Origin: a virus
Taxonomy: Duplodnaviria > Heunggongvirae > Uroviricota > Caudoviricetes
IMG/VR virus record: IMGVR_UViG_2563366806_000005
Reading direction: 5' to 3' (one strand)
Length of the DNA stretch: 36,246 bases
Below, piece by piece: positions 3,722 to 33,471 of the stretch; positions within the stretch are counted from its first letter, which is position 1; every line of letters starts with the position of its first letter. The notes under the pieces were generated by a model. It ran no database searches. It worked only from the letters and a program-made list of their open reading frames with translations, and was not told where the DNA came from. The position numbers were made by a program, and so were the translations under genes.

Positions 3722-3948
3722 TGGCTGATGCAATGGATCTCGTACAGCAGCGCGTTGAAGAAGAACGCCAACGCCATATCCGTGCTGCCCGTGCCAAAAC
3801 GCCGGGCGTGTCCCGCGTGCTTTGCATTGAGTGTGAAGCGCCAATTACGCCAGCACGCCGCCGTGCCATTCCGGGTGTGCAGCTTTGCATTACCTGTCAG
3901 GAAATCGCAGAGCTGAAAGGCAAACATTACAACGGAGGTGCTGTATGA
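3721..3948 (+). CDS. TraR/DksA-family C4 zinc-finger protein
   Basis: CIECEAPI..(17 aa)..CITCQ four-cysteine motif in a 75-aa protein; translationally coupled to dam (ATGA overlap). Confidence 0.7.
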   Translation: MADAMDLVQQRVEEERQRHIRAARAKTPGVSRVLCIECEAPITPARRRAIPGVQLCITCQEIAELKGKHYNGGAV

Positions 3949-4802
3949 GCACCATCCTGAAATGGGCGGGAAATAAAACTGCCATAATGTCCGAACTAAA
4001 AAAACATCTTCCTGCTGGCCCGCGACTGGTTGAACCTTTCGCGGGTTCCTGTGCTGTGATGATGGAGACGGATTATCCCAGCTATCTGGTTGCGGATATT
4101 AATCCTGATTTAATCAACCTCTATAAAAAGGTTGCCGCTGATTGTGAATCGTTTATATCTCGCGCCAGAGTTTTATTTGAGATCGCAAACAGGGAGATGG
4201 CTTATTACAACATAAGGCAGGAGTTTAATTACTCAACTGAAATTACTGATTTCATGAAAGCGGTATATTTCCTGTATCTCAATCGTCACGGTTACCGTGG
4301 TTTATGTCGCTATAACAAGAGCGGGCATTTCAACATTCCCTACGGTAATTATAAAAATCCGTATTTCCCTGAAAAAGAAATTCGCGCATTTGCAGAAAAG
4401 GCCCAGCGAGCAACGTTTATCTGCGCCAGCTTTGATGAAACGCTGGCGATGTTGAAGGCGGGGGATGTGGTGTATTGCGATCCGCCGTATGACGGTACGT
4501 TTTCCGGCTATCACACTGACGGCTTCACTGAAGATGACCAGTATCACCTGGCATCTGTTCTTGAACATCGGTCATCAGAAGGACATCCGGTCATTGTTTC
4601 TAACAGTGACACATCCCTGATCCGTTCGCTGTATCGCAATTTTACTCACCACTACATCAAGGCAAAACGCAGCATCGGTGTGGCAGCTGGCGAGGGTAAA
4701 TCAGCAACAGAAATCATTGCTGTTTCCGGGCCGCGCTGCTGGGTGGGATTTGATTATTCGCGTGGCGTGGATAGTTCTGCCGTGTACGGAGTACATGCAT
4801 GA
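3945..4802 (+). CDS. dam: DNA adenine methyltransferase (Dam family, GATC-type), orphan
   Basis: N-terminal AdoMet motif [11 protein letters not shown] and catalytic DPPY motif (VYCDPPYDG); RBS ggagg before ATG 3945; no adjacent restriction gene. Confidence 0.85.
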
Positions 4803-7213
4803 GTCATGCCGATATGAACAACTGCTGCGGCTTTAACGAAGCTGCCGCATCGTTCTCATGGAACAGCCCGAAAAAGGCCATTAACCCTTATCTGGACCCG
4901 GTGGAAGTTGCGCCGGTTTCTACGCTTTCAAACCTGATCACTCTGTACGCTGCCGATAACGAGCAGGAACAGCTGCGCCGTGAGGCGCTGAGTGATCAGG
5001 TCTGGGAGCGTTATTTCTTTAATGAATCCCGTGATCCTGTCCAGCGCGAAATGGAACAGGATAAGCTCATTAGTCGGGCAAAGCTGGCGCATGAGCAGCA
5101 GCGTTTTAATCCGGATATGGTCATTCTGGCGGACGTCAACGCCCAGCCTTCCCATATCAGCAAGCCGCTGATGCAACGTATTGAATACTTCAGCAGCCTG
5201 GGCAGGCCAAAGGCTTATTCCCGCTATTTACGTGAGACGATTAAGCCATGTCTGGAACGACTGGAGCATGTACGCGACAGTCAGCTATCTGCATCTTTTC
5301 GCTTTATGGCAAGCCATGAAGGGCTGGACGGCCTGCTGATCCTGCCTGAAATGAGTCAGGATCAGGTGAAACGCCTGTCCACCCTGGTAGCTGCGCATAT
5401 GAGTATGTGCCTTGATGCCGCTTGTGGCGATTTGTATGCCACCGATGACGTTAAGCCAGAAGAAATCCGCAATACATGGGAAAGGGTGGCAGCGGAAACC
5501 CTGCGTCTGGATGTCATCCCGCCTGCGTTTGAGCAACTCCGTCGGAAAAGAAACCGCCGTAAACCCGTGCCCTATGAACTCATTCCGGGTTCGCTGGCGC
5601 GTATGTTGTGCGCCGACTGGTGGTATCGGAAATTATGGAAGATGCGTTGCGAATGGCGGGAAGAGCAGTTGCGTGCTGTCTGCCTTGTCAGCAAAAAAGC
5701 ATCTCCCTATGTCAGCTATGAAGCCGTGTTGCATAAACGTGAGCAGCGCCGTAAGTCGCTGGAGTTTTTCCGTTCTCATGAACTGGTGAACGAAGACGGC
5801 GACACGCTAGACATGGAGGATGTGGTAAACGCCAGCAGCAGCAACCCTGCGCATCGCCGCAATGAGATGATGGCCTGTGTTAAAGGTCTGGAGCTTATCG
5901 CGGAAATGCGCGGTGACTGCGCCGTTTTCTACACCATCACCTGTCCGTCACGTTTCCATTCCACGCTAAATAACGGCAGGCCCAATCCGACCTGGACAAA
6001 TGCGACGGTAAGACAAAGCAGCGATTATCTGGTCGGTATGTTTGCTGCATTTCGTAAGGCGATGCACAAAGCCGGGTTGCGCTGGTATGGCGTGCGGGTG
6101 GCTGAGCCGCATCACGACGGCACAGTTCACTGGCACCTGTTGTGTTTCATGCGCAAAAAAGACCGCCGCGCCATTACAGCATTGTTGCGTAAGTTTGCTA
6201 TCCGTGAAGACCGCGAGGAGCTGGGCAATAACACGGGGCCGCGCTTTAAGTCTGAGCTGATTAACCCGCGCAAAGGAACGCCGACAAGCTACATAGCGAA
6301 ATACATCAGTAAGAACATTGACGGGCGTGGTCTGGCTGGCGAGATCAGCAAGGAAACGGGTAAATCTCTGCGTGATAACGCTGAATACGTGAATGCCTGG
6401 GCGTCTTTGCATCGTGTTCAGCAATTCCGCTTCTTTGGCATTCCGGGGCGTCAGGCTTACCGTGAACTGCGATTGCTGGCTGGTCAGGCGGTAAGGCAAA
6501 AGGGGGACAAAAAAGCAGGTGCGCCGGTACTGGATAACCCGCGCCTTGATGCCATCCTGGCTGCTGCTGATGCTGGTTGTTTTGCCACCTACATCATGAA
6601 GCAGGGCGGCGTACTGGTTCCCCGTAAATATCACCTCATCAGAACCGCTTATGAAATCAACGAAGAGCCGACCGCCTATGGCGATCACGGCATTCGTATT
6701 TATGGCATCTGGTCACCCATTGCAGAGGGCAAGATCTGCACTCATGCAGTGAAGTGGAAAATGGTTCGTAAAGCCGTTGACGTTCAGGAGGCGGCAGCCG
6801 ACCAGGGCGCTTGCGCCCCTTGGACTCGTGGCAATAACTGTCCCCTTGCTGAAAATTTGAACCAACAAGGGAAAGACAAATCAGCTGATGGGGATACCAG
6901 GACGGACATTACCCGCATGGATGACAAGGCGTTGCACGATTACCTGCACAGTATGAGCAAAAAAGAGCGCCGGGAACTAGCTGCAAGGTTACGCCTGGTG
7001 AAACCGAAACGGCGTAAAGACTACAAACAGCGAATTACAGACCATCAGCGACAGCAGCTCGTCTATGAACTGAAGTCCAGAGGATTTGATGGCAGCGAGA
7101 AAGAGGTCGATTTACTCCTTCGCGGCGGCAGTATTCCGTCAGGAGCAGGCCTGCGTATCTTCTATCGGAACCAGCGTTTGCAGGAAGATGATAAGTGGCG
7201 AAACCTGTATTAA
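4799..7213 (+). CDS. A: Replication initiation endonuclease A (P2 gpA / 186 A, rolling-circle initiator)
   Basis: 804-aa protein with [10 protein letters not shown] and HWHLLCF motifs typical of P2 A; position after early genes. Confidence 0.85.
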
Positions 7214-7366: not shown

Positions 7367-7555
7367 ATGCAGGACTATTTTTTGGAGTCTTTGAAGCTCC
7401 AGCGCATTGATTTTTTTCTTAAACTTGTAGCGGCTAGTGAGTGTAGTGATGAAGAGAAGGGGCTGGCTTTGCAGTGGGTTTCTGAACTGACAGATGAACT
7501 CATGGCAAAAATCAGAACCCACGAATACAACCGCTCAATGGATGTCATCAGCTGA
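7367..7555 (+). CDS. tum: Tum-like antirepressor, N-terminal part (62 aa)
   Basis: RBS aggagg before ATG 7367; downstream of the LexA box as for 186 tum; overlaps the next ORF in another frame. Confidence 0.5.
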   Translation: MQDYFLESLKLQRIDFFLKLVAASECSDEEKGLALQWVSELTDELMAKIRTHEYNRSMDVIS

Positions 7556-7565
7556 GGTGACTTTT

Positions 7566-7799
7566 ATGCGCATTGAAATAATGATCGATAAAGAGCAGAA
7601 GATTAGCCAGTCTACCCTGGACGCCCTTGAATCCGAGCTTTACCGCAATCTGCGCCCCCTGTATCCAAAAACGGTAATTCGCATCCGCAAAGGTAGCTCT
7701 AACGGTGTGGAACTGACCGGACTGCAACTGGACGAAGAAAGGAAGCAAGTGATGAAAATTATGCAGAAGGTGTGGGAAGACGACAGCTGGCTGCATTAA
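7566..7799 (+). CDS. DinI-like protein (Tum C-terminal-like module)
   Basis: MRIEIMIDKEQKISQSTLDALESELYRNL...KIMQKVWEDDSWLH resembles E. coli DinI (MRIEVTIAK...ETWESADDWF); RBS gaggtg. Confidence 0.7.
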   Translation: MRIEIMIDKEQKISQSTLDALESELYRNLRPLYPKTVIRIRKGSSNGVELTGLQLDEERKQVMKIMQKVWEDDSWLH

Positions 7800-7921
7800 G
7801 AAACGTTGCTGGCGTCTGAACTTGCTTCTGGCGTCAGCAAGGTTGAACAACGAGCTGTGCGAGGCGTTAGTTGATATAGTATCAATATATAAAAGGTTTC
7901 TCGAAGTTTTAAGGTAAGGTT

Positions 7922-8641
7922 ATGACAACTATTAACAAGCATGGGTTATCTAGAACAATTCCTGAACCTGTAAAACTGGAGGTAAGGCAGCGCTGTGGCT
8001 TCGGTTGCGTTGTTTGTGCTTCTCCCATTGTTGAGTATGAGCATGTAATTCCCACATACGCTGATGCAAAGGAGCACTCTCCAAATGCAATAGCACTACT
8101 TTGTCCTACGTGCCATGCGAAAGTAACGAAACGTCTTTACTCTAAAGAGAAAATAATTAAAGCAATGGAATCTCCTGCAGCCTTACAAAAAGGGAATGTG
8201 GCCGATATATTGGACTTTTCTGATAGGCATCCAACAATAATATTTGGTGGTGCGACGTTTGAATCCTGTACTGTACCAATAATGTTTCAAAATGAGCCAT
8301 TGTTAACCATTGAAAAAGAAAATAATGCTTTTCTTATTTCGGGTAAATTTTACGATAGTCAAGGTATTGTTAATCTTGAATTAATTAAGAATGAGTGGGT
8401 TTGTAGTGCAAGGCATTGGGATGTTCAGGTTGTCGGTCCTAGAATAACTATTATAGAAAAAAGGAAAGGTCCTCGTTTAATTATTAAAGTTGATGCGCCT
8501 GAAAGATTGATTGTGGAAAGATTAGATATGTTGGTTAAGGGGACTCGGATTGTAGGAGACGAACACAAGCTAAGAGTAGGTCCACATCAATTTCACAACT
8601 GTGGAGTTTCAAATTGCAATATTGGTTTCTGCTTTGGCTAA
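7922..8641 (+). CDS. Uncharacterised HNH-motif (zinc-finger nuclease-like) protein, 239 aa; candidate accessory or defence gene
   Basis: CGFGCVVC...EYEHVIP...N..LLCPTCH (CxxC..H..N..CxxCH HNH-type signature) at the N-terminus; AT-rich; located between tum and cos, the P2 old/tin-equivalent position. Confidence 0.55.
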   Translation: MTTINKHGLSRTIPEPVKLEVRQRCGFGCVVCASPIVEYEHVIPTYADAKEHSPNAIALLCPTCHAKVTKRLYSKEKIIKAMESPAALQKGNVADILDFSDRHPTIIFGGATFESCTVPIMFQNEPLLTIEKENNAFLISGKFYDSQGIVNLELIKNEWVCSARHWDVQVVGPRITIIEKRKGPRLIIKVDAPERLIVERLDMLVKGTRIVGDEHKLRVGPHQFHNCGVSNCNIGFCFG

Positions 8642-8754
8642 CTGGAGGTTGGAAAAAGACCATTTCCTATAAGCTGAGTATTTCGTACATTTTTGCCAAC
8701 GCATGTCTATGCCGCATGAAATCGCATGATCGTTTGAGGATCGTTTTTGCTGAT

Positions 8755-8779
8755 GCCCGCCAGAGCTGGCGGGCTTTTG
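8755..8779 (+). terminator. Rho-independent terminator after the HNH gene
   Basis: gcccgcc-agagct-ggcgggc stem-loop followed by tttt. Confidence 0.5.
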
Positions 8780-8823
8780 CTTATGTCATGCAGGTGCATG
8801 AAAACCACTACACAAAGCGGGCA

Positions 8824-8842
8824 GGCGTGGCGGGGATACGAG
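8824..8842. other. cos: Candidate cos (cohesive end) sequence GGCGTGGCGGGGATACGAG
   Basis: Resembles the P2/186 cohesive-end sequence as I recall it (GGCG[A/T]GGCGGGGAAAGCA.) followed by GCGCGC; located between the right-end genes and portal Q, where cos lies in P2. Confidence 0.4.
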
Positions 8843-8864
8843 CGCGCGCCATGTGGTATGGAGA

Positions 8865-8893
8865 TTGGATCTATTCATAACTTGATGTATAAA
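8865..8893 (+). promoter_or_regulatory. Candidate retron operon promoter (-35 ttggat, 17-bp spacer, -10 tataaa)
   Basis: Hexamers read directly, about 25 nt upstream of the effector start. Confidence 0.35.
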
Positions 8894-8916
8894 GTAGAAA
8901 AAAAAGCGGGGAGATT

Positions 8917-9840
8917 ATGAATAAAAAATTTACCGATGAGCAGCAACAACAGCTTATAGGACATCTCACAAAGAAAGGCTTCTATCGAGGAGCTAATATT
9001 AAAATAACCATTTTTCTATGTGGTGGTGACGTTGCTAATCATCAATCTTGGCGTCATCAATTATCACAATTTTTAGCAAAGTTCAGTGATGTTGATATAT
9101 TTTATCCAGAAGATCTATTTGATGATCTTTTGGCTGGTCAAGGGCAGCATAGCCTTTTAAGTTTAGAAAATATTCTGGCTGAAGCTGTCGATGTAATAAT
9201 TTTATTTCCTGAAAGTCCGGGGTCTTTCACAGAGCTTGGTGCGTTCTCTAATAATGAAAACTTAAGGAGAAAGTTGATTTGCATTCAAGATGCAAAATTT
9301 AAATCAAAACGTAGCTTTATTAACTATGGTCCTGTTCGCCTGTTGCGTAAGTTTAATTCAAAATCTGTTTTGCGTTGTAGTTCAAATGAACTAAAAGAAA
9401 TGTGTGATTCATCTATTGATGTTGCCAGAAAATTACGATTATATAAAAAATTAATGGCATCTATTAAGAAGGTTAGGAAAGAAAATAAAGTATCAAAAGA
9501 TATTGGAAATATATTATACGCAGAGCGGTTTCTATTGCCTTGTATCTATTTACTGGATAGTGTCAACTACCGCACACTGTGTGAACTAGCTTTTAAAGCG
9601 ATAAAGCAAGATGATGTTTTATCTAAAATTATTGTTAGATCCGTTGTTTCTCGTCTAATAAATGAACGAAAAATACTTCAAATGACTGATGGTTATCAGG
9701 TCACTGCTTTGGGGGCTAGCTATGTTAGGAGCGTCTTTGATAGAAAGACACTTGACCGATTGCGGCTTGAGATTATGAATTTTGAAAACCGTAGAAAATC
9801 AACATTTAACTATGATAAGATTCCGTATGCGCACCCTTAG
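8917..9840 (+). CDS. Retron accessory effector, 307 aa (Ec86/Eco1-type; reported as nucleoside deoxyribosyltransferase-like N-glycosidase plus DNA-binding domain)
   Basis: Immediately upstream of msr-msd and RT, same strand, stop codon inside msr repeat a1; AT-rich; function assignment is from recalled literature on Ec86, not from a motif I can verify by eye. Confidence 0.8.
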   Translation: MNKKFTDEQQQQLIGHLTKKGFYRGANIKITIFLCGGDVANHQSWRHQLSQFLAKFSDVDIFYPEDLFDDLLAGQGQHSLLSLENILAEAVDVIILFPESPGSFTELGAFSNNENLRRKLICIQDAKFKSKRSFINYGPVRLLRKFNSKSVLRCSSNELKEMCDSSIDVARKLRLYKKLMASIKKVRKENKVSKDIGNILYAERFLLPCIYLLDSVNYRTLCELAFKAIKQDDVLSKIIVRSVVSRLINERKILQMTDGYQVTALGASYVRSVFDRKTLDRLRLEIMNFENRRKSTFNYDKIPYAHP

Positions 9841-9996
9841 CGAGAGGTTTATCATTAAGGTCAACCTCTGGATGTTGTTTCGGCATCCTGCATTGAATCT
9901 GAGTTACTGTCTGTTTTCCTTGTTGGAACGGAGAGCATCGCCTGATGCTCTCCGAGCCAACCAGGAAACCCGTTTTTTCTGACGTAAGGGTGCGCA
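9828..9996 (+). ncRNA. msr-msd: Retron msr-msd non-coding RNA (template for msDNA), Ec86/Eco1-type
   Basis: Flanked by 12-nt inverted repeats a1 tgcgcaccctta (9828-9839) and a2 taagggtgcgca (9985-9996); internal stem-loops gaggtt..aacctc and ggagagcatc..gatgctctcc; sequence matches the Ec86 ncRNA as I recall it. Confidence 0.9.
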
Positions 9997-10002
9997 ACTT
10001 TC

Positions 10003-10965
10003 ATGAAATCCGCTGAATATTTGAACACTTTTAGATTGAGAAATCTCGGCCTACCTGTCATGAACAATTTGCATGACATGTCTAAGGCGACTCGCATATC
10101 TGTTGAAACACTTCGGTTGTTAATCTATACAGCTGATTTTCGCTATAGGATCTACACTGTAGAAAAGAAAGGCCCAGAGAAGAGAATGAGAACCATTTAC
10201 CAACCTTCTCGAGAACTTAAAGCCTTACAAGGATGGGTTCTACGTAACATTTTAGATAAACTGTCGTCATCTCCTTTTTCTATTGGATTTGAAAAGCACC
10301 AATCTATTTTGAATAATGCTACCCCGCATATTGGGGCAAACTTTATACTGAATATTGATTTGGAGGATTTTTTCCCAAGTTTAACTGCTAACAAAGTTTT
10401 TGGAGTGTTCCATTCTCTTGGTTATAATCGACTAATATCTTCAGTTTTGACAAAAATATGTTGTTATAAAAATCTGCTACCACAAGGTGCTCCATCATCA
10501 CCTAAATTAGCTAATCTAATATGTTCTAAACTTGATTATCGTATTCAGGGTTATGCAGGTAGTCGGGGCTTGATATATACGAGATATGCCGATGATCTCA
10601 CCTTATCTGCACAGTCTATGAAAAAGGTTGTTAAAGCACGTGATTTTTTATTTTCTATAATCCCAAGTGAAGGATTGGTTATTAACTCAAAAAAAACTTG
10701 TATTAGTGGGCCTCGTAGTCAGAGGAAAGTTACAGGTTTAGTTATTTCACAAGAGAAAGTTGGGATAGGTAGAGAAAAATATAAAGAAATTAGAGCAAAG
10801 ATACATCATATATTTTGCGGTAAGTCTTCTGAGATAGAACACGTTAGGGGATGGTTGTCATTTATTTTAAGTGTGGATTCAAAAAGCCATAGAAGATTAA
10901 TAACTTATATTAGCAAATTAGAAAAAAAATATGGAAAGAACCCTTTAAATAAAGCGAAGACCTAA
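10003..10965 (+). CDS. ret: Retron reverse transcriptase, 320 aa
   Basis: Retron-RT motifs NLLPQGAPSSPKLANL and RYADDLTLS (YADD box); starts 7 nt after repeat a2. Confidence 0.95.
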   Translation: MKSAEYLNTFRLRNLGLPVMNNLHDMSKATRISVETLRLLIYTADFRYRIYTVEKKGPEKRMRTIYQPSRELKALQGWVLRNILDKLSSSPFSIGFEKHQSILNNATPHIGANFILNIDLEDFFPSLTANKVFGVFHSLGYNRLISSVLTKICCYKNLLPQGAPSSPKLANLICSKLDYRIQGYAGSRGLIYTRYADDLTLSAQSMKKVVKARDFLFSIIPSEGLVINSKKTCISGPRSQRKVTGLVISQEKVGIGREKYKEIRAKIHHIFCGKSSEIEHVRGWLSFILSVDSKSHRRLITYISKLEKKYGKNPLNKAKT

Positions 10966-10980
10966 TGGTCTTCGTTTTAA
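10956..10980 (+). terminator. Possible terminator hairpin at the RT stop codon
   Basis: gaagacc-taat-ggtcttc perfect 7-bp stem followed by gtttta. Confidence 0.35.
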
Positions 10981-10982
10981 AA

Positions 10983-12011
10983 CTAAAGCTCATAGGTTGA
11001 AAAATTGAGCACTTCTTCGTCCAACCAGTTATTTAGTTCCTGCAATCGTTTCTGCAGGGGCATCAATTCGTTTCTTACGAATACCTTGCTAGCCTTCTCC
11101 ACATCCCCAAACCCCCCGACATTATTAGGCATAATTCCCATCATTTGCGGCGGCACGCGGTGTGCCGCCATCATGTCATCACGGCTCACGTTCTTGATAT
11201 TCAGAAACTCATCCTTCGCTGCGACTTCTGACAACGGGATAATCTGAAGTCCGTCTTTTTTACCATTAGGCGAGTACATAAACAGGTTGCGGAAGTTGCC
11301 AGGGCCTTTGGCACTTTTCATCGCATTGCGGAGGTTGTTCACATCTTCCTGGTTCTGCGCGGCATCGGTCATGTACATGATGAAGCCTGCATGACTACCG
11401 TTAATGTAATACTTTCGGCGGAACAGCGTGGCGGACTCGTTGAGCAGGGCGGATGGGATGGCAGAAAGATAGCCGGGCAGGCCGTAGATCTCCTGGTTGA
11501 TGTCCGGTTCCATCAGATGAAAAATGCTGCCTTTCGTGAACTGATACGGCTGCGTGGTCATGCCGTATTGCACAAACCAGTAGGTATCTAGGTCTAATCC
11601 GCGTCGGGTGTATTTTGCCAGCGCAGGCTCAAGGGCGATAACTTCACCGAATCGGTTCGTGCGTTTCTCCAGGTAGGCGTTACCAAAAACCAGATAGTCC
11701 TGCACAAAACGTGAAAACGCCTGCTGGCTGAGCAGCGGGTGAGGGATGTAGGTGCTGGTCAGAATGTTGCACTTTACTGCAATCGGTGAACTGTGGTGTA
11801 CGGCGGCGCGGAATGTTCGCGCCAGTCCGTCAAAACTTACGGGTGGCTCATACCAGCGGTCCATCTTTACGCATTCCACATAGTCCAGTAATTCGCGGCG
11901 GTCCAGAACAGGAACGGGATCACCGAAGCTGAATGCTTCGGCTGAAGTTTGGTTTTTATGCTGGATCTGGTTCGTCGCCGCAGCGCGGTTTTTCTTACTC
12001 TTTCCCATCAA
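10983..12011 (-). CDS. Q: Portal protein (P2 gpQ)
   Basis: 342 aa, position and orientation as P2 Q, translationally coupled to P. Confidence 0.85.
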   Translation of the reverse strand: MMGKSKKNRAAATNQIQHKNQTSAEAFSFGDPVPVLDRRELLDYVECVKMDRWYEPPVSFDGLARTFRAAVHHSSPIAVKCNILTSTYIPHPLLSQQAFSRFVQDYLVFGNAYLEKRTNRFGEVIALEPALAKYTRRGLDLDTYWFVQYGMTTQPYQFTKGSIFHLMEPDINQEIYGLPGYLSAIPSALLNESATLFRRKYYINGSHAGFIMYMTDAAQNQEDVNNLRNAMKSAKGPGNFRNLFMYSPNGKKDGLQIIPLSEVAAKDEFLNIKNVSRDDMMAAHRVPPQMMGIMPNNVGGFGDVEKASKVFVRNELMPLQKRLQELNNWLDEEVLNFSTYEL

Positions 12012-13774
12012 AAAATCTCCACAATATTGCTGGTATTGGCGGACTCGCCCTGCAGCGGTTCGTTAAACAGTGCGTGCATTGTTGCCCAGGCCAGATCGGC
12101 ATGGCTGGCTTCTTCGCTGCGGCTGGCTTCATAGGTTGGGCGGTTGCCGCTGGCGGTGGTGGCGCGACGGATTGCCATAAATGACTGCGCTATGTCGGTG
12201 TGTCCGGCGTCAAACTCCAGACGACGGTGACTGATAATGTCGTAGGCCTTGAGTACCAGGGCGTTTTTAACGTTGGGGTTGTAGACAAACTCCCGGACGG
12301 CTGGAAAAAACGCTTTCACGTTCTCGTAAACCCCGTGGCCGACACCTGTCGAGTCGATGCCGATGTAGGTCACGTTGTACTGCTCGGTCAGTTTTTTGAT
12401 GGCGTCAGCCTGGGCGCGGAAGTCCATCCCGCGCCACTGGTGACGCTCAAGAATGCGGAACTTACCACCCGGCACGGCTGGCGGTGCCACCACCACGCAT
12501 CCGGCACTGTCGCCGTTCTGCGTACCTTTTGCCGGGTCATAACCGATCCACACTTCGCGCCAGCCAAACGGGCGCAGGGCCAGTGCATGAAAGTCGGTCC
12601 AGACTTCCCAACTGTCCACCATGCACGCTTGCAGCTCGCTGAGCGGGAACACGGACGCGAGATCGTCCACGAACTCGCACATCAGCAGGTTCTGGTATTC
12701 GTCCGGGCTGTACTCCATGCGTAGCTGGTCGAGGTCGAACAGGTTACAGCCGCCGCGCACCGCATCTTCCACGGTGACTATCTGGCGGTATTGCCCGTCT
12801 GTGCACAGCAGGCCGGGGGCCAGATTGCTGTGGGACAGGTCGATGTCCACCTTGTCGGCTTTGTTGCGCCCACGGTTGAACAGCGCACCGGACCAGAACG
12901 GATAAGCACTGTGTGTCAGGCTGGATGGCGTGGAAAAATAGGTTTGTCGCCATTTTTTGTGAATAGCCATACCGGAAGCCACTTTGCGCAGCTCCTGGAA
13001 TTTCGGTATCCAGAAATATTCATCCAGATACAGGTTGCCGTGGTAACTCTGGGCCGTGCGGGCATTGGTGCCGAGGAAGTACAGCGTGGCCCCGTTAGGA
13101 AGCACTATCGGATCGCCTTTCAGCTCCACCTCCACTTCTTTGGCGAAGTCGATGATGTACTGCTTAAAGACGTGGGCCTGTGCCTTGCTGGCGGAAAGGA
13201 AAATCTGGTTACGCCCGGTTAGCAGGGCGTCAATCAGGGCTTCACGGGCAAAATAGAAGGTCGCGCCGATCTGGCGTGACTTCAGCAGGTTGCGGATGCG
13301 GTTGGTTTTTCCGGCTTCCCACCAGTGGCGCTGGTAGTTGAACATGGAGGAATGGAAGATTTCTTCCAGCTTCTCAATCTGTTCATCGGTGAAAACGTTC
13401 TTTTCCGGCTGACGACGCGGGCCTTTGTTGCGGTTGGCGACGTTAGGGTTTAAGTCGGCTTCGTTGCCGCCATTGTTAAACTTGCCGATCCGCGCATGGC
13501 GCTCCGACTGGCGCGCCAGCAGGTCAATCTCTTTGAAATCTTTCCCTTCTTTGTGCTCCTTCATAATGAGCTGGCAGTAGCGTGCGGCGGTGGTGAGCTG
13601 CATCTGATCCAGCGGCCCATAGTCACCCCACTTGTCGCGTTTTTTCCAGCTGTGAACGGTTGCAACTTTCTCGCCCAGCATTTCAGCAATGCGGGCTACG
13701 CGGTATCCCTGAAAGTACAGCAGCATGGCCTGCCGACGGGGATCGAGATCTGCGGGTGTCAGTGTGGTGTTCAT
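12008..13774 (-). CDS. P: Terminase large (ATPase) subunit (P2 gpP)
   Basis: 588 aa, divergent from O-N-M as in P2. Confidence 0.9.
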   Translation of the reverse strand: MNTTLTPADLDPRRQAMLLYFQGYRVARIAEMLGEKVATVHSWKKRDKWGDYGPLDQMQLTTAARYCQLIMKEHKEGKDFKEIDLLARQSERHARIGKFNNGGNEADLNPNVANRNKGPRRQPEKNVFTDEQIEKLEEIFHSSMFNYQRHWWEAGKTNRIRNLLKSRQIGATFYFAREALIDALLTGRNQIFLSASKAQAHVFKQYIIDFAKEVEVELKGDPIVLPNGATLYFLGTNARTAQSYHGNLYLDEYFWIPKFQELRKVASGMAIHKKWRQTYFSTPSSLTHSAYPFWSGALFNRGRNKADKVDIDLSHSNLAPGLLCTDGQYRQIVTVEDAVRGGCNLFDLDQLRMEYSPDEYQNLLMCEFVDDLASVFPLSELQACMVDSWEVWTDFHALALRPFGWREVWIGYDPAKGTQNGDSAGCVVVAPPAVPGGKFRILERHQWRGMDFRAQADAIKKLTEQYNVTYIGIDSTGVGHGVYENVKAFFPAVREFVYNPNVKNALVLKAYDIISHRRLEFDAGHTDIAQSFMAIRRATTASGNRPTYEASRSEEASHADLAWATMHALFNEPLQGESANTSNIVEIF

Positions 13775-13916: not shown

Positions 13917-14750
13917 ATGACAGTGAAAGCAAAGCGTTTTCGCATCGGGGTGGAAGGTGCCACCACCGACGGACGCGAAATCCAGCGTGAATGGCTGGAA
14001 CAGATGGCAGCCAGCTACAACCCGGCGGTGTATACCGCGCTGATTAACCTTGAGCACATCAAGTCTTATCTGCCGGACAGCACCTTTAACCGCTACGGCA
14101 AGGTGACGGCGCTGTTTGCTGAGGAAATCACGGAAGGTCCGCTGGCAGGCAAGATGGCGCTGTATGCCGACGTTGAGCCAACGGAGTCCCTGGTGGAACT
14201 GGTGAAAAAAGGCCAGAAATTATTCACCTCTATGGAAGTCAGCCCGAAGTTCGCTGATACGGGCAAAGCCTACCTGGTCGGCCTGGCTGCCACTGATGAC
14301 CCTGCCAGTCTGGGCACTGAAATGCTGACATTCAGCGCCAGTGCAGCCCATAACCCGCTGGCAAACCGCAAGCAGAATCCTGCCAATCTCTTTACCGCTG
14401 CAGAGGAAACGGTGATCGAACTGGAGGAAGTCCAGGACGACAAACCGTCCCTGTTTTCCCGCGTCACGGCGCTGTTCACCAAAAAAGAGCAGTCCGATGA
14501 CGCCCGGTTCTCTGATGTGCATAAGGCCGTGGAGCTGGTCGCCACTGAGCAGCAAAACCTGAGCGCGCGAACCGAAAAATCTCTGTCTGAGCAGGAAGAA
14601 CGCCTGTCTGAACTGGAGTCTGCTCTGCAGAAGCAGCAAACCGCCTTTAATGAACTGGTGAATAAGCTGAGTCATGAAGACAGCCGCCAGGACTACCGCC
14701 AGCGTGCAACAGGCGGTAACGCCCCCGCTGACACTCTGACCAATTGCTGA
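13917..14750 (+). CDS. O: Capsid scaffolding protein (P2 gpO)
   Basis: FRIGVEGATTDGREI N-terminus and ...ATGGNAPADTLTNC C-terminus resemble P2 O. Confidence 0.85.
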   Translation: MTVKAKRFRIGVEGATTDGREIQREWLEQMAASYNPAVYTALINLEHIKSYLPDSTFNRYGKVTALFAEEITEGPLAGKMALYADVEPTESLVELVKKGQKLFTSMEVSPKFADTGKAYLVGLAATDDPASLGTEMLTFSASAAHNPLANRKQNPANLFTAAEETVIELEEVQDDKPSLFSRVTALFTKKEQSDDARFSDVHKAVELVATEQQNLSARTEKSLSEQEERLSELESALQKQQTAFNELVNKLSHEDSRQDYRQRATGGNAPADTLTNC

Positions 14751-14766
14751 TGGAGCACAAAACCCG

Positions 14767-15825
14767 ATGAAGAAGAATACCCGCTTTGCTTTTAACGCTT
14801 ACCTGCAGCAGCTGGCGCGTCTGAACGGTGTGGCAGTTGAAGAACTGTCCAGCAAGTTCACTGTAGAGCCGTCTGTACAGCAGACGCTGGAAGACCAGAT
14901 CCAGCAGTCCGCCGCTTTCCTGACGCTGATTAACGTCACGCCAGTGACTGAGCAGTCTGGTCAGTTGCTGGGGCTGGGTGTTGGCAGCACCATTGCCGGA
15001 ACCACTGACACCACCGCGAAAGAGCGTGAGCCTGTCGATCCGACGCTGATGGTTGATGTGGAATATAAATGCGAGCAGACCAACTTTGACACGGTGCTGA
15101 CCTACGCGAAGCTGGACCTGTGGGCGAAGTTTCAGGATTTCCAGGTGCGCATCCGTGACGCCATCGTGAAACGTCAGGCACTGGACCGCATCATGATCGG
15201 CTTTAACGGCGTGAAGCGTGCGAAAACCTCCAACCGTAGTGAAAACCCGCTGCTGCAGGATGTAAACAAAGGCTGGCTGCAGAAAATCCGTGAGGATGCA
15301 CCGGATCACGTCATGGGCAGCACCACCACGGGCGGTGAAACCACTCCGGGCGCGGTGAAAGTCGGGAAAGGTGGCGAATATGCCAACCTGGACGCCGTAG
15401 TGATGGATGCCGTCAATGAGCTTATCGATGTGGTCTACCAGGACGATGACGATCTGGTGGTGATTTGCGGTCGTGAACTGCTGTCAGACAAGTATTTCCC
15501 GCTGGTCAACAAAGAGCAGGAAAACAGTGAAAAACTGGCTGCCGATATGATCATCAGTCAGAAACGCATGGGTGGCCTGCAGGCCGTGCGTGCGCCGTTC
15601 TTCCCGCCGAATGCGCTGCTGATCACCCGTCTGGATAACCTGTCCATCTACTGGCAGGAAGACACCCGCCGCCGTTCAGTTATCGACAACCCGAAACGTG
15701 ACCGGATTGAAAATTTTGAATCCGTTAACGAAGCCTATGTGGTTGAGGACTACCGCTGCGCCGCACTGGTGGAAAACATCCAGATTGGCGATTTCAGCGC
15801 CGCTGCAGCAGAAGCCGGAGCGTAA
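14767..15825 (+). CDS. N: Major capsid protein (P2 gpN)
   Basis: Close resemblance to P2 N along its length (FNAYL..LNG...KFTVEPSV...). Confidence 0.9.
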   Translation: MKKNTRFAFNAYLQQLARLNGVAVEELSSKFTVEPSVQQTLEDQIQQSAAFLTLINVTPVTEQSGQLLGLGVGSTIAGTTDTTAKEREPVDPTLMVDVEYKCEQTNFDTVLTYAKLDLWAKFQDFQVRIRDAIVKRQALDRIMIGFNGVKRAKTSNRSENPLLQDVNKGWLQKIREDAPDHVMGSTTTGGETTPGAVKVGKGGEYANLDAVVMDAVNELIDVVYQDDDDLVVICGRELLSDKYFPLVNKEQENSEKLAADMIISQKRMGGLQAVRAPFFPPNALLITRLDNLSIYWQEDTRRRSVIDNPKRDRIENFESVNEAYVVEDYRCAALVENIQIGDFSAAAAEAGA

Positions 15826-15828
15826 CCC

Positions 15829-16479
15829 ATGAGCCTGAGTCCCGCACGGCAGCATCGCCTGCGCGTTCAGGCTGAACAGGCCGCCCGCGAGGGCGGCAGC
15901 GTTCGCCACGCGTCGGGCTATGACCTGATGCTGCTGCAACTGGCGGAAGACCGCCGCCGTCTCAAGGGCGTTCAGTCCACGGTGAAAAAAGCGGAAATCA
16001 AGGTGGAGCTGCTGCCGAAATATGCCGCCTGGGCGGAGGGCGTCCTGGCTGCCGGAGGCGCTCAACAGGATGACGTGCTGATGTACGTGATGCTGTGGCG
16101 CATTGATGCCGGAGATTATGCCGGGGCGCTGGAGATCGGGCGTCATGCCCTGCGTCATGGCTGGGTGATGCCGCTGGGTAACCGCAACGTGCAGACCGTG
16201 CTGGCAGAGGAAATGGCAGACGCGGCGCAGAGCGCAATGCTTGCCGCCACCGGCTTTGATGCCGATCTGTTGCTGCAGACGCTGGAGCTGACAGACGGTC
16301 TGGATATGCCGGACCAGTCACGGGCGCGTCTGCATAAAGCGATTGGCGCTGTCCTGAGTGAAAGCAACCCGGCTTCCGCCCTTAATCATCTCAACCATGC
16401 GTTACAGCTCGATCCCCGCTGTGGCGTGAAAAAAGACAAACAGCAGCTGGAGCGCAGACTGCGCAATGACAGCCGCTGA
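15829..16479 (+). CDS. M: Terminase small / endonuclease subunit (P2 gpM)
   Basis: Position after N, 216 aa. Confidence 0.8.
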   Translation: MSLSPARQHRLRVQAEQAAREGGSVRHASGYDLMLLQLAEDRRRLKGVQSTVKKAEIKVELLPKYAAWAEGVLAAGGAQQDDVLMYVMLWRIDAGDYAGALEIGRHALRHGWVMPLGNRNVQTVLAEEMADAAQSAMLAATGFDADLLLQTLELTDGLDMPDQSRARLHKAIGAVLSESNPASALNHLNHALQLDPRCGVKKDKQQLERRLRNDSR

Positions 16480-16574
16480 CAGAACGTGCCCCCGCGCACG
16501 GGCGGCACGGGGTGGCGAAAGGCACTGCCACATCAAAACCCCGTCCACCGCCCTCTATTTCAGGAGAAAGCAGC

Positions 16575-17039
16575 ATGAAGTTTGTTGCGCCAGAACAGGC
16601 ACCGGAACAGGCGGAAATCATCAGGAATACGCCGTTCTGGCCTGATGTGGACCTGTCGGAGTTTCGCAGCGTGATGCGCACTGACGGCACGGTGACGCAG
16701 CCGCGTTTAAAGCAGGTTGCGCTGTCGGCAATTTCGGAGGTCAACGCAGAGCTGTATGAGTTTCGCAGACGCCAGCAGATGCTGGGGTATGCCTCGCTGG
16801 CAGAGGTTCCGGCGGAACAGCTGGACGGCAAAAGTGAGCGCATTCAGCACTATTTCAACGCGGTTTACTGCTGGGCACGCGCCATGCTCAACGAACGATA
16901 CCAGGACTATGACGCCACGGCGTCCGGTGTGAAGCGGGGCGAGGAACTGGCGGAAGCCAGCGGTGATTTGTGGCGTGACGCCCGCTGGGCCATCAGCCGG
17001 GTGCAGGATGCGCCGCACTGCACAGTGGAGCTTATCTGA
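16575..17039 (+). CDS. L: Head completion / stabilisation protein (P2 gpL)
   Basis: Position; ATG 16575 with RBS caggagaaag; track start 16512 lacks an RBS. Confidence 0.8.
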   Translation: MKFVAPEQAPEQAEIIRNTPFWPDVDLSEFRSVMRTDGTVTQPRLKQVALSAISEVNAELYEFRRRQQMLGYASLAEVPAEQLDGKSERIQHYFNAVYCWARAMLNERYQDYDATASGVKRGEELAEASGDLWRDARWAISRVQDAPHCTVELI

Positions 17040-17242
17040 TGAAAGTGCGTGCGCATCAGTATGACACGGTGGACGCGCTTTGCTGGCGTCATTACGGGCG
17101 CACGCAGGGGGTCACGGAGCAGGTACTGAAGGCAAATCCGGGGCTTGCCGAATACGGCCCCTTTTTACCTCACGGGCTGCAGGTGGAGCTGCCGGACATT
17201 CCGACCACCACCACCGTGCAGACCGTCCAGCTATGGGACTGA
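17039..17242 (+). CDS. X: Tail protein X (LysM-like)
   Basis: 67 aa, overlaps L stop (ATGA), as P2 X. Confidence 0.8.
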   Translation: MKVRAHQYDTVDALCWRHYGRTQGVTEQVLKANPGLAEYGPFLPHGLQVELPDIPTTTTVQTVQLWD

Positions 17243-17245
17243 ATT

Positions 17246-17461
17246 ATGACGCTTGAGCGAATCAGCGCCTTTATCACGTATTGCATCGCCGTCGTGCTGG
17301 CCTGGCTGGGCGATTTGTCCATCAAGGATGCCTCAACGCTGGGCGGCCTGATGATTGGTGTACTGATGCTGGCTATCAACTGGTACTACAAACACAAAGC
17401 CTACCAGCTTCTGCGCGACGGGCAGATTTCGCGGGAGGACTATGAATCCATCAATCGTTAA
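17246..17461 (+). CDS. Putative holin, 71 aa
   Basis: Two hydrophobic helices and charged C-terminus, directly upstream of the endolysin. Confidence 0.6.
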   Translation: MTLERISAFITYCIAVVLAWLGDLSIKDASTLGGLMIGVLMLAINWYYKHKAYQLLRDGQISREDYESINR

Positions 17462-17957
17462 ACGCTGCCTTGTCGGGGCCGTGCTGACTATTGCTGCCAC
17501 GCTGCCGGGTTTTCAGCAGCTTCACACCTCCGTGGAGGGGCTGAAACTGATTGCTGATTACGAAGGCTGTCGTCTGCAGCCGTATCAGTGCAGCGCGGGT
17601 GTCTGGACCGACGGCATTGGTAATACGTCGGGCGTCATTCCCGGCAAAACCATTACGGAGCGACAGGCAGCAGAAGGGCTGATCTCCAACGTGCTGCGTG
17701 TGGAGCGGGCGCTGGAAAGGTGTGTGAAGCAACAGCCGCCGCAGAAGGTGTATGACGCTGCGGTGTCGTTTGCCTTCAACGTGGGAACGGGCAATGCCTG
17801 TAGTTCCACACTGGTGAAATTGCTCAATCAGCGGCGCTGGGCAGATGCGTGCCGACAGTTGCCGCGCTGGGTTTATGTAAAAGGTGTGTTTAATCAGGGG
17901 CTGGATAACCGCCGTGCGCGGGAGATGGCCTGGTGCCTTAAAGGAGCTGGACTATGA
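17442..17957 (+). CDS. K: Endolysin (phage lysozyme), possible SAR-type signal-anchor
   Basis: ADYEGCRLQPYQCSAGVWTDGIGNT (Glu-8aa-Asp-5aa-Thr lysozyme triad); hydrophobic N-terminus CLVGAVLTIAATLPG. Confidence 0.85.
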   Translation: MNPSIVKRCLVGAVLTIAATLPGFQQLHTSVEGLKLIADYEGCRLQPYQCSAGVWTDGIGNTSGVIPGKTITERQAAEGLISNVLRVERALERCVKQQPPQKVYDAAVSFAFNVGTGNACSSTLVKLLNQRRWADACRQLPRWVYVKGVFNQGLDNRRAREMAWCLKGAGL

Positions 17958-18909: not shown

Positions 18910-19348
18910 ACTGCAGAAGGTGGACGACTGGCTTAGTGCCTTACTGGCGAATCTGGAACCAGTCGCAAGAAGCCGCATGATGCGCCAGCTGGCGCAGGAA
19001 CTGCGCCGGACACAGCAGCAGAATATCAGGATGCAGCGCAATCCAGATGGCAGCAGTTATGAACCGCGCAAGGTCACGGCGCGCAGTAAAAAAGGCCGCA
19101 TCAAACGTCAGATGTTTGCAAAGCTGCGCACCACCAAATACCTGAAAACCGCCGCCAGCGCCGACTCTGCCAGCGTACAGTTTGAAAGTAAGGTGCAGCG
19201 CATTGCTCGCGTTCACCATTATGGCCTGCGCGATCGCGTCAGCCGCAAAGGACCGGAAGTGCGTTACGCAGAGCGTCGTTTGTTGGGTCTTAATGGTGAG
19301 TCTTACGTTCTAACTCGTGATATATTGAATAGATTCCTTCTGTCTTGA
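18902..19348 (+). CDS. S: Tail completion protein S; final ~19 codons encoded by the AT-rich insert
   Basis: Position after R; 3' end overlaps the convergent cargo gene by 59 nt. Confidence 0.75.
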   Translation: MAELQKVDDWLSALLANLEPVARSRMMRQLAQELRRTQQQNIRMQRNPDGSSYEPRKVTARSKKGRIKRQMFAKLRTTKYLKTAASADSASVQFESKVQRIARVHHYGLRDRVSRKGPEVRYAERRLLGLNGESYVLTRDILNRFLLS

Positions 19349-20096
19349 ATTCACCATATGCCCAATGAATTGCATTTTTTTGTTCAGTCAGAATATATTT
19401 CCTAACTTTTTTAGAATAGTGAATGGTCAGTATAAAACCCAAAGAAATCCATAATAGAATAAATATGGTTGTTGGGGCAAAGGAATAGATAAAGAATTTG
19501 TCTTTAACGAAATTCTTGACTTCTTCATCAATGTAAGTATTCCCTTCATCAGTGGTTAGTAGTTTACAAAGAATTTCTTTATGTTCGATAGTTAATGATT
19601 TGTACTTCTCTGTACTGGCAGAGGATGACTCTTCGCAATCATCTTTTGATATTTCCCAATCAGGAGTGGTTAATATTGTAGCTGCAGTCGCCAGTTTTTT
19701 TGACATATAAAATGATTCACCGGACTTTATCCAATAAAGCAATGTGCTATTTGGTGGGGTTCTAATGGCTTGGATGAAAACTGGACCAAAAATATAAATT
19801 GCACACAAAAAAAGAAGTGAAAAGAGAACCGTGATTGATTTTTCAGCCCATGTGATAGTAGGCAGCCTTTTTAATGATATTCGTATAAGAAAAAAATTTA
19901 ATATAAACGCAGGTATTCCTGATTTTTTCAAAATTACATCATGAGATTTTCTATATTTGAATAGTGCTCTTATAACTATCGTCACCAAAGTTATAACAGC
20001 TCCAATAATGGAAATCCATGCGGCAAGTGCCGCTGCCGGGGTGTTTAAAAATTCAGCATTAAATATATTAGAACTTATTGGATTCATAACACTCAT
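19290..20096 (-). CDS. Uncharacterised multi-pass membrane protein, 268 aa; AT-rich cargo gene antisense between S and V
   Basis: Hydrophobic helices (AAALAAWISIIGAVITLVTIVI; ITVLFSLLFLCAIYIFGPVFI; FAPTTIFILLWISLGFILTI); strongly AT-rich versus flanks; no recognisable enzymatic motif. Confidence 0.6.
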   Translation of the reverse strand: MSVMNPISSNIFNAEFLNTPAAALAAWISIIGAVITLVTIVIRALFKYRKSHDVILKKSGIPAFILNFFLIRISLKRLPTITWAEKSITVLFSLLFLCAIYIFGPVFIQAIRTPPNSTLLYWIKSGESFYMSKKLATAATILTTPDWEISKDDCEESSSASTEKYKSLTIEHKEILCKLLTTDEGNTYIDEEVKNFVKDKFFIYSFAPTTIFILLWISLGFILTIHYSKKVRKYILTEQKNAIHWAYGEFKTEGIYSIYHELERKTHH

Positions 20097-24309: not shown

Positions 24310-24719
24310 TGAATGCGTCATATGCAGTTATTGAAAATGGGATGGTTGTGAATGTCATTGTCTGGGATGGCGAGGATGAATTCACTGTGCCGGATAATCT
24401 GCAGCTCATTAATATTTCTGATATCAGTGAGCAGCCCGGAATCGGCTGGGCGTATTCAGACGGGGTATTTACTGCGCCGCTCCCTCCGGAACGTTCTCAT
24501 GATGAACTGGTAGCTGACGCTGAACAGAAAAAACAGTCGTTGATAGACGCAGCAATGGTCAATATCAGCGTGATTCAGTTAAAGCTGCAGGCCGGGCGGA
24601 AGCTGACGCAGGCAGAAACCACCCGACTTAACGCCGTGCTGGATTACATTGACGCGGTGACGGCAACAGATACCAGCACTGCGCCGGATGTCATCTGGCC
24701 TGAACTGCCGGAGGCGTAG
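24309..24719 (+). CDS. G: Tail fibre assembly chaperone (Tfa / gpG-like), active orientation
   Basis: RBS gagga; overlaps H stop; C-terminal ...LDYIDAVTATDTSTAPDVIWPELP shared with the inverted copy. Confidence 0.75.
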   Translation: MNASYAVIENGMVVNVIVWDGEDEFTVPDNLQLINISDISEQPGIGWAYSDGVFTAPLPPERSHDELVADAEQKKQSLIDAAMVNISVIQLKLQAGRKLTQAETTRLNAVLDYIDAVTATDTSTAPDVIWPELPEA

Positions 24720-25508: not shown

Positions 25509-25535
25509 CCCCGATTTTTATTCAAGGAGATGATC

Positions 25536-33413: not shown

Positions 33414-33471
33414 TCGTTAAAAAACAGTGCTTCTAACATCATGATTTTAAAGAGCATAAATTTCAGGCAAC

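Follow-up and report, generated by a model that had tools for sequence, protein, structure and literature searches.

Retron Ec86 (Retron-Eco1) was the first retron described in E. coli; it is a workhorse of retron genome editing, and its structure and mechanism have been characterised. It is classified as type II-A3 (Mestre 2020, PMC7736814). The endogenous Eco1 of BL21 produces msDNA, is RNase H1-dependent and defends against T5 (PMC8989520), and the msDNA of the BL21 locus was also demonstrated by Lim & Maas 1989, as reported in a citing paper. Its site is in a 186-related prophage, with cos on one side and the Q terminator on the other (Dodd & Egan 1996, as cited in PMC6868368 and PMC5694545), and the gpA-gpQ interval of P2 has been described as a defence hotspot (Rousset 2022, PMC9122126). 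Retron reverse transcriptases (RTs) carry, in addition to YADD, the signatures NAxxH in region X and VTG in region Y (PMC6868368).

Retrons Ec67 (186-related prophage phiR67) and Ec73 (P4-like phiR73) also adjoin cos of a P2-family phage or satellite, and the Ec67 site is that of Ec86 (Dodd & Egan 1996, as cited in PMC6868368). However, Ec67 belongs to type I-C and has a Toprim domain fused to its RT, Ec73 belongs to type II-A1, and their ncRNAs and effectors are unrelated to those of Ec86. The St85/Sen2 family (II-A1) likewise combines an NDT-like and DNA-binding effector with a retron RT; Ec86 is in II-A3 (RT clade 9), whereas St85 is in II-A1 (clade 1), and the ncRNA types differ (PMC7736814). 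The old and tin cargo of P2 resembles the retron considered here in its use of the same hotspot, in its behaviour as an AT-rich cassette and in the role of excluding other phages. However, old and tin lie to the gpA side of cos, and between cos and Q P2 has only the terminator tQ, whereas here the retron is on the Q side.

We analysed a window of 36,246 nucleotides, IMG/VR virus record IMGVR_UViG_2563366806_000005. The region 8865-10980 is almost certainly retron Ec86 (Retron-Eco1, type II-A3), an anti-phage system of three parts that acts by abortive infection; it forms a cargo cassette next to cos in a P2/186-family prophage. A three-part retron between cos and the portal gene had been proposed from a sequence-only reading, and its effector, ncRNA and RT all proved to be in place, between cos at 8824-8842 and Q at 10983-12011. 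The same reading had called the unit a described system, which is borne out by the published location, type, mechanism and hotspot of Ec86. The unit is real and complete, but it is already published and not new.

The effector and RT protein sequences do not differ from those of E. coli BL21(DE3). From 8814 to 10892 there are no base differences from BL21(DE3), the ncRNA included, and the only change in the whole unit is a synonymous one at 10893. As in Ec86, the effector gene comes first, followed by msr-msd and then by the RT gene. The proteins, the ncRNA, the gene order and the position between cos and Q are all the same as in Ec86/Eco1 of E. coli B and BL21 (PDB 7v9u, 7v9x, 7xjg, 8qbk-8qbm, 9jm0). 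Of 5426 complete E. coli genomes, 48 have a sequence at least 99% identical to 8865-10980, and most of these are of the B/BL21 lineage. On the general definition the unit is a retron, having the RT signatures NAxxH, YADD and VTG and an adjacent ncRNA with a1/a2 repeats, an unpaired G and hairpins. An orthologous RT, an NDT-like/DNA-binding effector and the Ec86 msr-msd with its CCTGG Dcm site place it in Retron-Eco1, type II-A3. Abortive-infection activity that depends on all three components has been published for the identical sequence, against T5 (PMC8989520) and phage K42 (bioRxiv 10.1101/2023.08.16.553469). By extrapolation from the identical BL21 sequence, the retron of this prophage would be expected to produce msDNA and to confer phage resistance.

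The RT of 320 aa (10003-10965, plus strand) is a full-length match of RT-Eco1 in PDB entries 7v9u, 7v9x and 8qbk (E 4.5e-214), whereas the RT of Ec67 matches it only with E 4.5e-34. Its homology to retron RTs is further confirmed by PADLOC RT_II-A (7.1e-128) and NCBIfam NF038233 (287.6 bits, cut-off 235), and Pfam RVT_1 is matched as well. Two motifs had been taken as retron-specific, and both are present, NLLPQGAPSSPKLANL at residues 157-172 and RYADDLTLS at residues 194-202. However, YADD (195-198) is the general catalytic motif of RTs, and the diagnostic signatures are NAxxH, found as NATPH at 105-109, and VTG at 243-245.

The effector gene (8917-9840, plus strand), noted in the same reading as a 307-aa ORF ahead of the ncRNA on the same strand, encodes a full-length match of the Ec86 effector in PDB entries 7v9x_C and 8qbl_G (E 1.2e-203). 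It is recognised by PADLOC NDT_II-A (2.7e-94) and NCBIfam NF038232 (176.6 bits, curated cut-off 100), and D69 and E106, the published residues of the catalytic pocket, are both present. A Pfam-A search of the effector matched no model; the precomputed annotation assigns PF28093 STM3845 to it. The NCBIfam models passed here are those of the St85 family, but this label is an umbrella term and does not indicate the closest relative.

The msr-msd ncRNA (9828-9996; this and all following ncRNA features are on the plus strand) is enclosed by a perfect 12-nt inverted repeat formed by a1, TGCGCACCCTTA, at 9828-9839 and a2, TAAGGGTGCGCA, at 9985-9996, with a spacing of 145 nt. Six nt separate a2 from the start codon of the RT gene downstream, and a1 shares its sequence with the end of the effector gene. 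Among 1000 shuffles of 9700-10100, only two gave an inverted repeat that was 12 nt or longer and had its arms spaced 100-260 nt apart. The RNA 9827-9997 has a minimum free energy of -81.1 kcal/mol (z = -9.2 against 200 shuffles). This block had been described as about 170 nt of non-coding DNA; the perfect a1/a2 repeats and internal hairpins stand, but it is not wholly non-coding, as the C-terminus of the effector (..AHP*) is encoded within a1 and the stop codon TAG (9838-9840) finishes on the G just after a1. This G9840 is the candidate priming (branching) guanosine: in the consensus structure it is an invariant, unpaired base directly 3' of a1, and in 15 of 17 homologues this G is provided by the effector UAG. 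Its role as the 2'-OH primer would follow from retron biochemistry (PMC6868368).

The structure is conserved in evolution. Each of the 17 distinct homologues retains the a1 and a2 arms, which show compensatory changes; in two of the homologues, L089 and L091, the arms were located using the motif TAGCGAG as an anchor. Compensatory changes are observed at 28 of the 47 predicted pairs, and 94.5% of cells are paired, compared with about 40% in slid controls; none of 500 shuffles reached the observed value. Conservation of a1 merely as the coding sequence of the effector C-terminus was considered and rejected as the sole cause, since a2 changes in step with a1. The msr part contains SL1 (9843-9849/9863-9869) and SL2 (9870-9877/9881-9888), both consensus helices with compensatory changes. 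SL2 has an 8-bp stem with a UUU loop, which matches the element bound by region Y of RT-Eco1 (PMC6868368). The two helices (numbers 2 and 3 of the consensus; region 9843-9888) are paired in 97.6% and 98.5%, respectively. The predicted 86-nt msd template (9898-9983) would be copied leftwards from C9983, with the msDNA as its reverse complement; these limits were computed from the sequence of msDNA-Ec86. The published length of msDNA was also used for them (PMC6868368).

The long msd stem-loop is a 25-nt hairpin (9915-9939/9944-9968; helix 4), and 17 of its 21 pairs have double changes. A motif search showed that it contains CCAGG at 9961-9965, which is CCTGG in the msDNA stem; this is the Dcm methylation site that has been reported to act as the sensor for activation (bioRxiv 10.1101/2023.08.16.553469). 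Only six of the 17 homologues have a CCWGG motif, and thus Dcm sensing may be particular to the Ec86 allele.

A covariance model constructed from distant homologues only had a unique match in the window, 9826-10000 (127.7 bits, E 1.1e-30). The resemblance of the ncRNA and RT to Ec86/Eco1 that the sequence-only reading had suggested is supported, the ncRNA being base-identical to that of BL21 and the RT protein identical as well. A search of the whole window against Rfam at gathering thresholds found no retron family, and only RybB passed; on 9700-10100, with E values up to 10 allowed, there were only spurious miRNA and leader matches (E at least 0.12), the miRNA-like ones falling on the msd hairpin. 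The missing Rfam match reflects the coverage of the library and not an absent structure, because the covariation and the independent covariance model both support the structure.

The cassette of approximately 2.1 kb (8851-10982, plus strand) was delimited by comparison with an empty site and by composition. Its left landmark is the cohesive-end core of cos, GGCGTGGCGGGGATACGAG (8824-8842), which can be aligned with the 19-nt cosL/cosR annotated in phage P2, GGCGAGGCGGGGAAAGCAC. On the right is the portal gene Q (10983-12011, minus strand; Pfam Phage_portal). The cassette begins about 8 nt past the cohesive end and finishes at the stop codon of Q (10983). In the near-identical prophage of KCJ3K291 the slot is empty; the sequences diverge just after 8850 and become similar again near 10985, where Q has its 3' end. 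The last approximately ten codons of Q differ from the empty-site allele, as seen when the C-terminus is compared with those of the KCJ3K291 prophage and P2. The AT-richness noted earlier is clear from a GC content of 35.4% in the cassette (8851-10982) against 54.6% in the backbone (11000-33000). A GC-rich hairpin (10955-10974) spans the stop codon of the RT gene; a terminator scan flags it on the minus strand, and on the plus strand TTTT follows. The hairpin resembles a terminator for the converging Q/P operon and probably serves the retron transcript as well.

The rest of the prophage is syntenic with the P2 family. Full-length gpA (4799-7213) was identified, gene P (12008-13774) is next to Q, and the late genes continue through to D and ogr. 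Since the retron is situated between genes A and Q and adjoins cos, in a slot with variable content, it occupies the gpA-gpQ hotspot. The placement of the unit as prophage cargo between cos and the portal gene in the sequence-only reading is correct; within the P2 family, the carrier belongs to the 186/Fels-2 branch, as it has CI, CII and DinI-like/Tum-type genes. The Tum/DinI-like gene, of the 186 type, would predict induction by the SOS response. The prophage is apparently intact. In contrast, the carrier of Ec86 in BL21 is a defective prophage without full-length gpA, capsid and lysis genes, all three of which are present here. The BL21 copy of Ec86 is stranded there. A gene for an HNH protein is located on the gpA side of cos, opposite the retron. 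The window and BL21 differ in 7810-8700, and BL21 has a different gene in place of this HNH gene. BL21 itself was rejected as the origin of the window, given the difference in 7810-8700, the intact gpA and the capsid genes.

The steps of the likely mechanism can be taken from published work on the identical sequence. The RT would bind the msr hairpin with the 8-bp stem and UUU loop, prime at the 2'-OH of G9840 and copy the msd from 9983 to 9898 into the 86-nt msDNA, with the template trimmed by host RNase H1. The RT-msDNA complex and effector dimers would then form filaments that keep the NDT-like effector inactive. Upon infection, a phage cytosine methyltransferase (Dcm) would methylate CCTGG in the msDNA stem-loop and thereby activate the effector, which would destroy adenine nucleosides and nucleotides (NAD+ according to Carabias 2024), so that phage replication is halted and the infected cell is lost. 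The prophage would benefit from a module excluding competitors, and the host from immunity. The Dcm trigger, the filament and the depletion of adenine derivatives were described by Wang 2023/24 (bioRxiv 10.1101/2023.08.16.553469), and NAD+-hydrolysing filaments by Carabias 2024 (as cited in PMC12746101). These two structural papers differ on the substrate, with adenine derivatives in one and NAD+ in the other.

Another chemistry of the same retron has a chance only somewhat short of even: activated filaments may hydrolyse NAD+ instead of depleting adenine, adenosine and deoxyadenosine as an NDT-type enzyme would, and with some phages, T5 among them, the trigger need not be Dcm. Indeed, Eco1 defends against T5 (PMC8989520), and the minority of homologues with CCWGG argues against Dcm as the trigger throughout the family. 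On the other hand, adenine derivatives were depleted after Dcm induction, and mutation of CCTGG ended defence against phage K42 (bioRxiv 10.1101/2023.08.16.553469); the two substrates are not distinguishable by sequence analysis. It is hardly credible that the locus is only a relic, decayed or silent, which resembles a retron but has lost msDNA production or protection. A sigma-70 consensus scan upstream of the effector and of msr found no promoter above shuffle expectation, and RefSeq annotates a shorter RT starting from M26. However, the two ORFs are intact, their products do not differ from the functional proteins of BL21, the ncRNA is identical base for base, and homologues conserve N-terminal residues that precede M26; L12 and P18 are invariant in our alignment, which favours the start at 10003.

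It is also rather unlikely that the prophage is the main beneficiary of the cassette. In that case the module would exclude competitors or cause addiction, keep the lysogen stable and move together with the phage, and defence of the host would be a by-product. The intact appearance of the carrier and the description of retrons as tripartite toxin-antitoxin systems agree with this, and such a role is compatible with the explanation of the locus as an abortive-infection system. However, the Eco1 effector by itself is not toxic (PMC8989520), and therefore a simple toxin-antitoxin picture fits poorly and the addiction role is weakened. Moreover, the retron has outlived its decayed prophage in BL21 and in Enterobacter, and therefore is kept for the benefit of the host too.

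As a discovery, the Ec86 locus carries little weight. The main value of the check is negative, since what had been put forward as the clearest defence module is confirmed to be a system already known. The additions are mild. They comprise a carrier prophage of Ec86 that seems to be complete, a clean junction of recombination at cos, a few anatomical details, and, for the II-A3 ncRNA that is missing from Rfam, an alignment backed by covariation together with a covariance model. A broader set of ideas seems distinctly improbable, namely that the window holds an intact inducible 186-type 'retronphage' able to move Ec86 from strain to strain by lysogeny, that the overlap of UAG and a1 could couple translation of the effector to ncRNA folding or msDNA priming, and that the occurrence of CCWGG in six of 17 alleles could mean that trigger specificity is swapped with the msd stem.

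The same slot is used in relatives. In 19 viral-contig loci, which have diverged alleles, the cos core is about 90-120 nt upstream of the effector, and related phages and P4-like satellites have diverged alleles of the same retron family adjoining cos. In Klebsiella phage 4LV2017 this slot is occupied by a different II-A retron. A megablast search of the unit against the phage collection had no match, the identical allele being absent from deposited phage genomes; related alleles are present on IMG/VR contigs. When phages and plasmids were searched with the effector by tblastn, only distant II-A relatives were found, which are unsuited to covariation analysis. The only match in a search of genome contigs with the RT was a 534-bp contig of 1.2x coverage in a Bacillaceae assembly, apparently a contamination from BL21.

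Retron Ec86 is present in all three parts, the effector gene, the msr-msd ncRNA and the RT gene. The two ORFs claimed by the sequence-only reading were found by ORF listing and direct reading: the effector gene (8917-9840, plus strand, 307 aa) and the RT gene (10003-10965, plus strand, 320 aa), with the RT motifs at residues 157-172 and 194-202. RT residues 1-320 match PDB chains 'RNA-directed DNA polymerase from retron EC86' (E 4.5e-214; 7v9u, 7v9x, 8qbk and others), and effector residues 1-307 match PDB 'Retron Ec86 putative ribosyltransferase/DNA-binding protein' (E 1.2e-203). PADLOC assigns the proteins to RT_II-A (7.1e-128) and NDT_II-A (2.7e-94), and NCBIfam to the St85-family retron RT (287.6 bits, cut-off 235) and effector (176.6 bits, cut-off 100). 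The RT carries the retron signatures NAxxH (105-109), YADD (195-198) and VTG (243-245). The effector has D69 and E106, residues singled out by published structural work.

Base-by-base comparison with E. coli BL21(DE3) yielded no differences in 8814-10892 and one synonymous change at 10893. Thus the ncRNA is exactly the Ec86 msr-msd. Both protein sequences are also identical to those of BL21(DE3). Matches of at least 99% identity to the 2116-bp query were found in 48 of 5426 complete E. coli genomes, including REL606, BL21(DE3) and many B-lineage derivatives, always as a single chromosomal copy. The original observation is confirmed and its interpretation as a three-part retron supported; the unit itself is already known, not new. 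A 534-bp, 1.2x-coverage contig of an Alkalicoccobacillus porphyridii assembly (NZ_VLXZ01000042.1) encodes part of the Ec86 RT at 99% identity, almost certainly through contamination with BL21 DNA.

RefSeq/PGAP starts the RT at M26 (window 10078; 295 aa, WP_226347323.1). However, L12 and P18 are invariant in 35 aligned homologues, with conservation spanning residues 8-25, and the solved chains have 320 aa. Thus 10003 is the correct start, and the RefSeq start is too far downstream.

The ncRNA is closed by a1 (9828-9839, TGCGCACCCTTA) and a2 (9985-9996, TAAGGGTGCGCA). The repeat finder reported them as a 12-nt inverted repeat with 100% complementarity, as first described, together with an internal 25-nt hairpin (9915-9939/9944-9968). 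Shuffling 9700-10100 1000 times gave an equally long inverted repeat at comparable spacing only twice. The folding energy of the 171-nt RNA is -81.1 kcal/mol (z = -9.2). The consensus helices, all on the plus strand, are the a1/a2 closing stem, msr stem-loop 1 (9843-9849/9863-9869), msr stem-loop 2 (9870-9877/9881-9888, 8 bp with a UUU loop), and the msd stem, which coincides with the 25-nt hairpin. Stem-loop 2 is the element reportedly bound by RT region Y (PMC6868368). The block had been called non-coding, but a1 encodes the effector C-terminus (..A-H-P-stop), and the last base of its stop codon, TAG at 9838-9840, is the G after a1. In 15 of 17 distinct family members, the putative priming G is contributed by the effector UAG stop, an overlap that may link translation of the effector to folding of the ncRNA. 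A sigma-70 consensus scan gave no promoter above shuffle expectation near the effector or msr starts.

Since no Rfam family matches the ncRNA (searches of the whole window and of 9700-10100), homologous loci were gathered. A protein search produced 451 RT relatives (E <=1e-40); 35 were aligned and then used to retrieve viral-contig loci, to which genomic loci from eight look-ups were added. All loci share one layout, in which a ~300-aa STM3845-family gene is followed by a ~150-175-nt gap and then by the RT gene. Each of them retains the a1/a2 repeat, whose arms show double compensatory changes (for example, TGTGCACCCTTA/TAAGGGTGCACA and GCACACCCTTA/TAAGGGTGTGC). RNAalifold predicted 47 pairs from 17 distinct sequences, 28 of them with compensatory changes. 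In a controlled count 94.5% of cells were paired, compared to 39-43% with partners slid by 1-3 columns, and none of 500 shuffles attained the observed value on any of five measures. A covariance model constructed from ten distant homologues only (RT at most 65% identical; the window and close relatives excluded) has one match in the window, 9826-10000 on the plus strand (127.7 bits, E 1.1e-30). The lack of a1/a2 conservation in homologues that would have refuted the sequence-only reading was therefore not observed.

The retron lies, as proposed, between cos (8824-8842) and the portal gene Q (10983-12011, minus strand). The 19-nt cohesive end is GGCGTGGCGGGGATACGAG, versus GGCGAGGCGGGGAAAGCAC in P2 (alignment to circularised P2 ends). 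The flanking genes are gpA (4799-7213), a DinI-like gene (7494-7799) and an HNH protein gene (7922-8641, plus strand) on one side, and, after Q, the terminase gene P (12008-13774, minus strand) and the remainder of the P2-family late region, through D and ogr, on the other. The prophage of E. coli KCJ3K291 has an HNH-cos backbone 99.8% identical to that of the window and an empty cos-Q slot. The two diverge right after 8850 and come together again near 10985, at the 3' end of Q, with the last ~10 Q codons different, so the cassette extends from 8851 to about 10982. Its GC content is 35.4%, versus 54.6% in the backbone.

All 19 viral-contig loci have the cos core ~90-120 nt upstream of the effector gene and Q downstream on the opposite strand, at 59-100% (RT) and 49-100% (effector) identity. 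Klebsiella phage 4LV2017, with an early region 96% identical to that of the window, has a different II-A retron immediately in front of Q. The slot agrees with the published hotspot (PMC9122126; PMC13586616). Beside cos and the retron, a Yersinia locus (L087, 1300-4930) contains an Ogr/Delta gene, and a Serratia locus (L088, 1300-4930) an Ogr/Delta gene together with a primase, neighbours that suggest P4-like satellites. The Serratia locus has an additional gene after the RT with a faint SIR2_2 match. An 87%-identical retron of Enterobacter cloacae (L084 4822-7086) adjoins ybjL/ybjM and still has the cos core and 35 aa of Q beside it; these remnants point to a prophage that has decayed at the same chromosomal site.

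The carrier prophage differs from that of BL21. gpA is full length in the window, but truncated and fused in BL21; the latter also has no region matching 14640-17785 (capsid and lysis genes) and lacks most of CII-gpA. Window 7810-8700 is not related to the sequence of either BL21 or strain 20A24. By sequence comparison, the window DNA is not BL21 itself. Relative to BL21 and 20A24, the stretch 8706-8813 has 14 SNPs and 8814-10892 is free of them, hence a sharp recombination junction at cos; this is consistent with modular swapping of the hotspot's two sides. The HNH-domain protein on the gpA side of cos (239 aa, Pfam HNH 2.4e-05, GC 38%) is accompanied by a terminator-like hairpin (8755-8774), whereas BL21 and 20A24 have an unrelated 111-aa hypothetical gene there on the opposite strand. 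PADLOC gives it a weak match only (mREase_IV, E 0.0095), and it is possibly a further defence or cargo gene. It was found in 21 complete E. coli genomes, and together with Ec86 in no complete RefSeq E. coli genome. The prophage (1-33400) has int, CI, CII, Dam, full-length gpA, Q, P, O, N, M, L, lysis genes, tail genes, D and ogr, and looks complete; if so, it would be an intact Ec86 'retronphage'. The differences from the textbook Ec86 copy are modest and leave the classification unchanged.

The mechanism proposed for this retron is taken from published studies of the identical copy in BL21. That strain produces ~86-base Eco1 RT-DNA in an RNase H1-dependent manner; the full operon protects against T5, and the effector by itself is not toxic (PMC8989520). 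RT-msDNA and effector dimers assemble into a filament that is primed for activation; phage Dcm methylates CCTGG of the msDNA stem-loop, mutation of this site abolishes defence, and activation depletes adenine, adenosine and deoxyadenosine (bioRxiv 10.1101/2023.08.16.553469). Carabias et al. 2024, as cited in PMC12746101, described the filaments as NAD+-hydrolysing, and the effector substrate, adenine derivatives or NAD+, is disputed. Sequence search places the site at 9961-9965, where the plus strand reads CCAGG and the msDNA stem CCTGG. Only 6 of 17 family members in the ncRNA alignment have a CCWGG motif; in close relatives (viral-contig loci L013 and L014, and L084) CAAGG or CAATG takes its place, restoring an msd-stem base pair. 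The product of the prophage gene just upstream of gpA (3885-4802, plus strand) is a D12-class Dam-type orphan methyltransferase (PADLOC oMTase 3.5e-111). Methyltransferases are known retron triggers; the Ec86 msd contains no GATC.

Several other features of the prophage were observed. The rybB sRNA gene (33469-33547, minus strand; Rfam 105 bits) lies directly past its right end. At its 3' end, rybB contains the 14-nt string AACAAAAAACCCAT, which is also found beside the integrase end in 20A24, suggesting a candidate att core that overlaps the rybB terminator. A DUF6216 gene (19290-20096, minus strand; 268 aa, 33% GC), antisense in the late operon just upstream of the baseplate gene V, has no PADLOC or NCBIfam match, is also found in BL21 and 20A24, and looks like a second moron. 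A serine invertase gene (25530-26102; Resolvase and HTH_7) adjoins oppositely oriented tail-fibre/assembly ORFs (24691-25508), and the BL21 match to 24534-24964 (88% identity) runs in the inverted orientation; the segment 24285-26102 looks like an invertible host-range segment.
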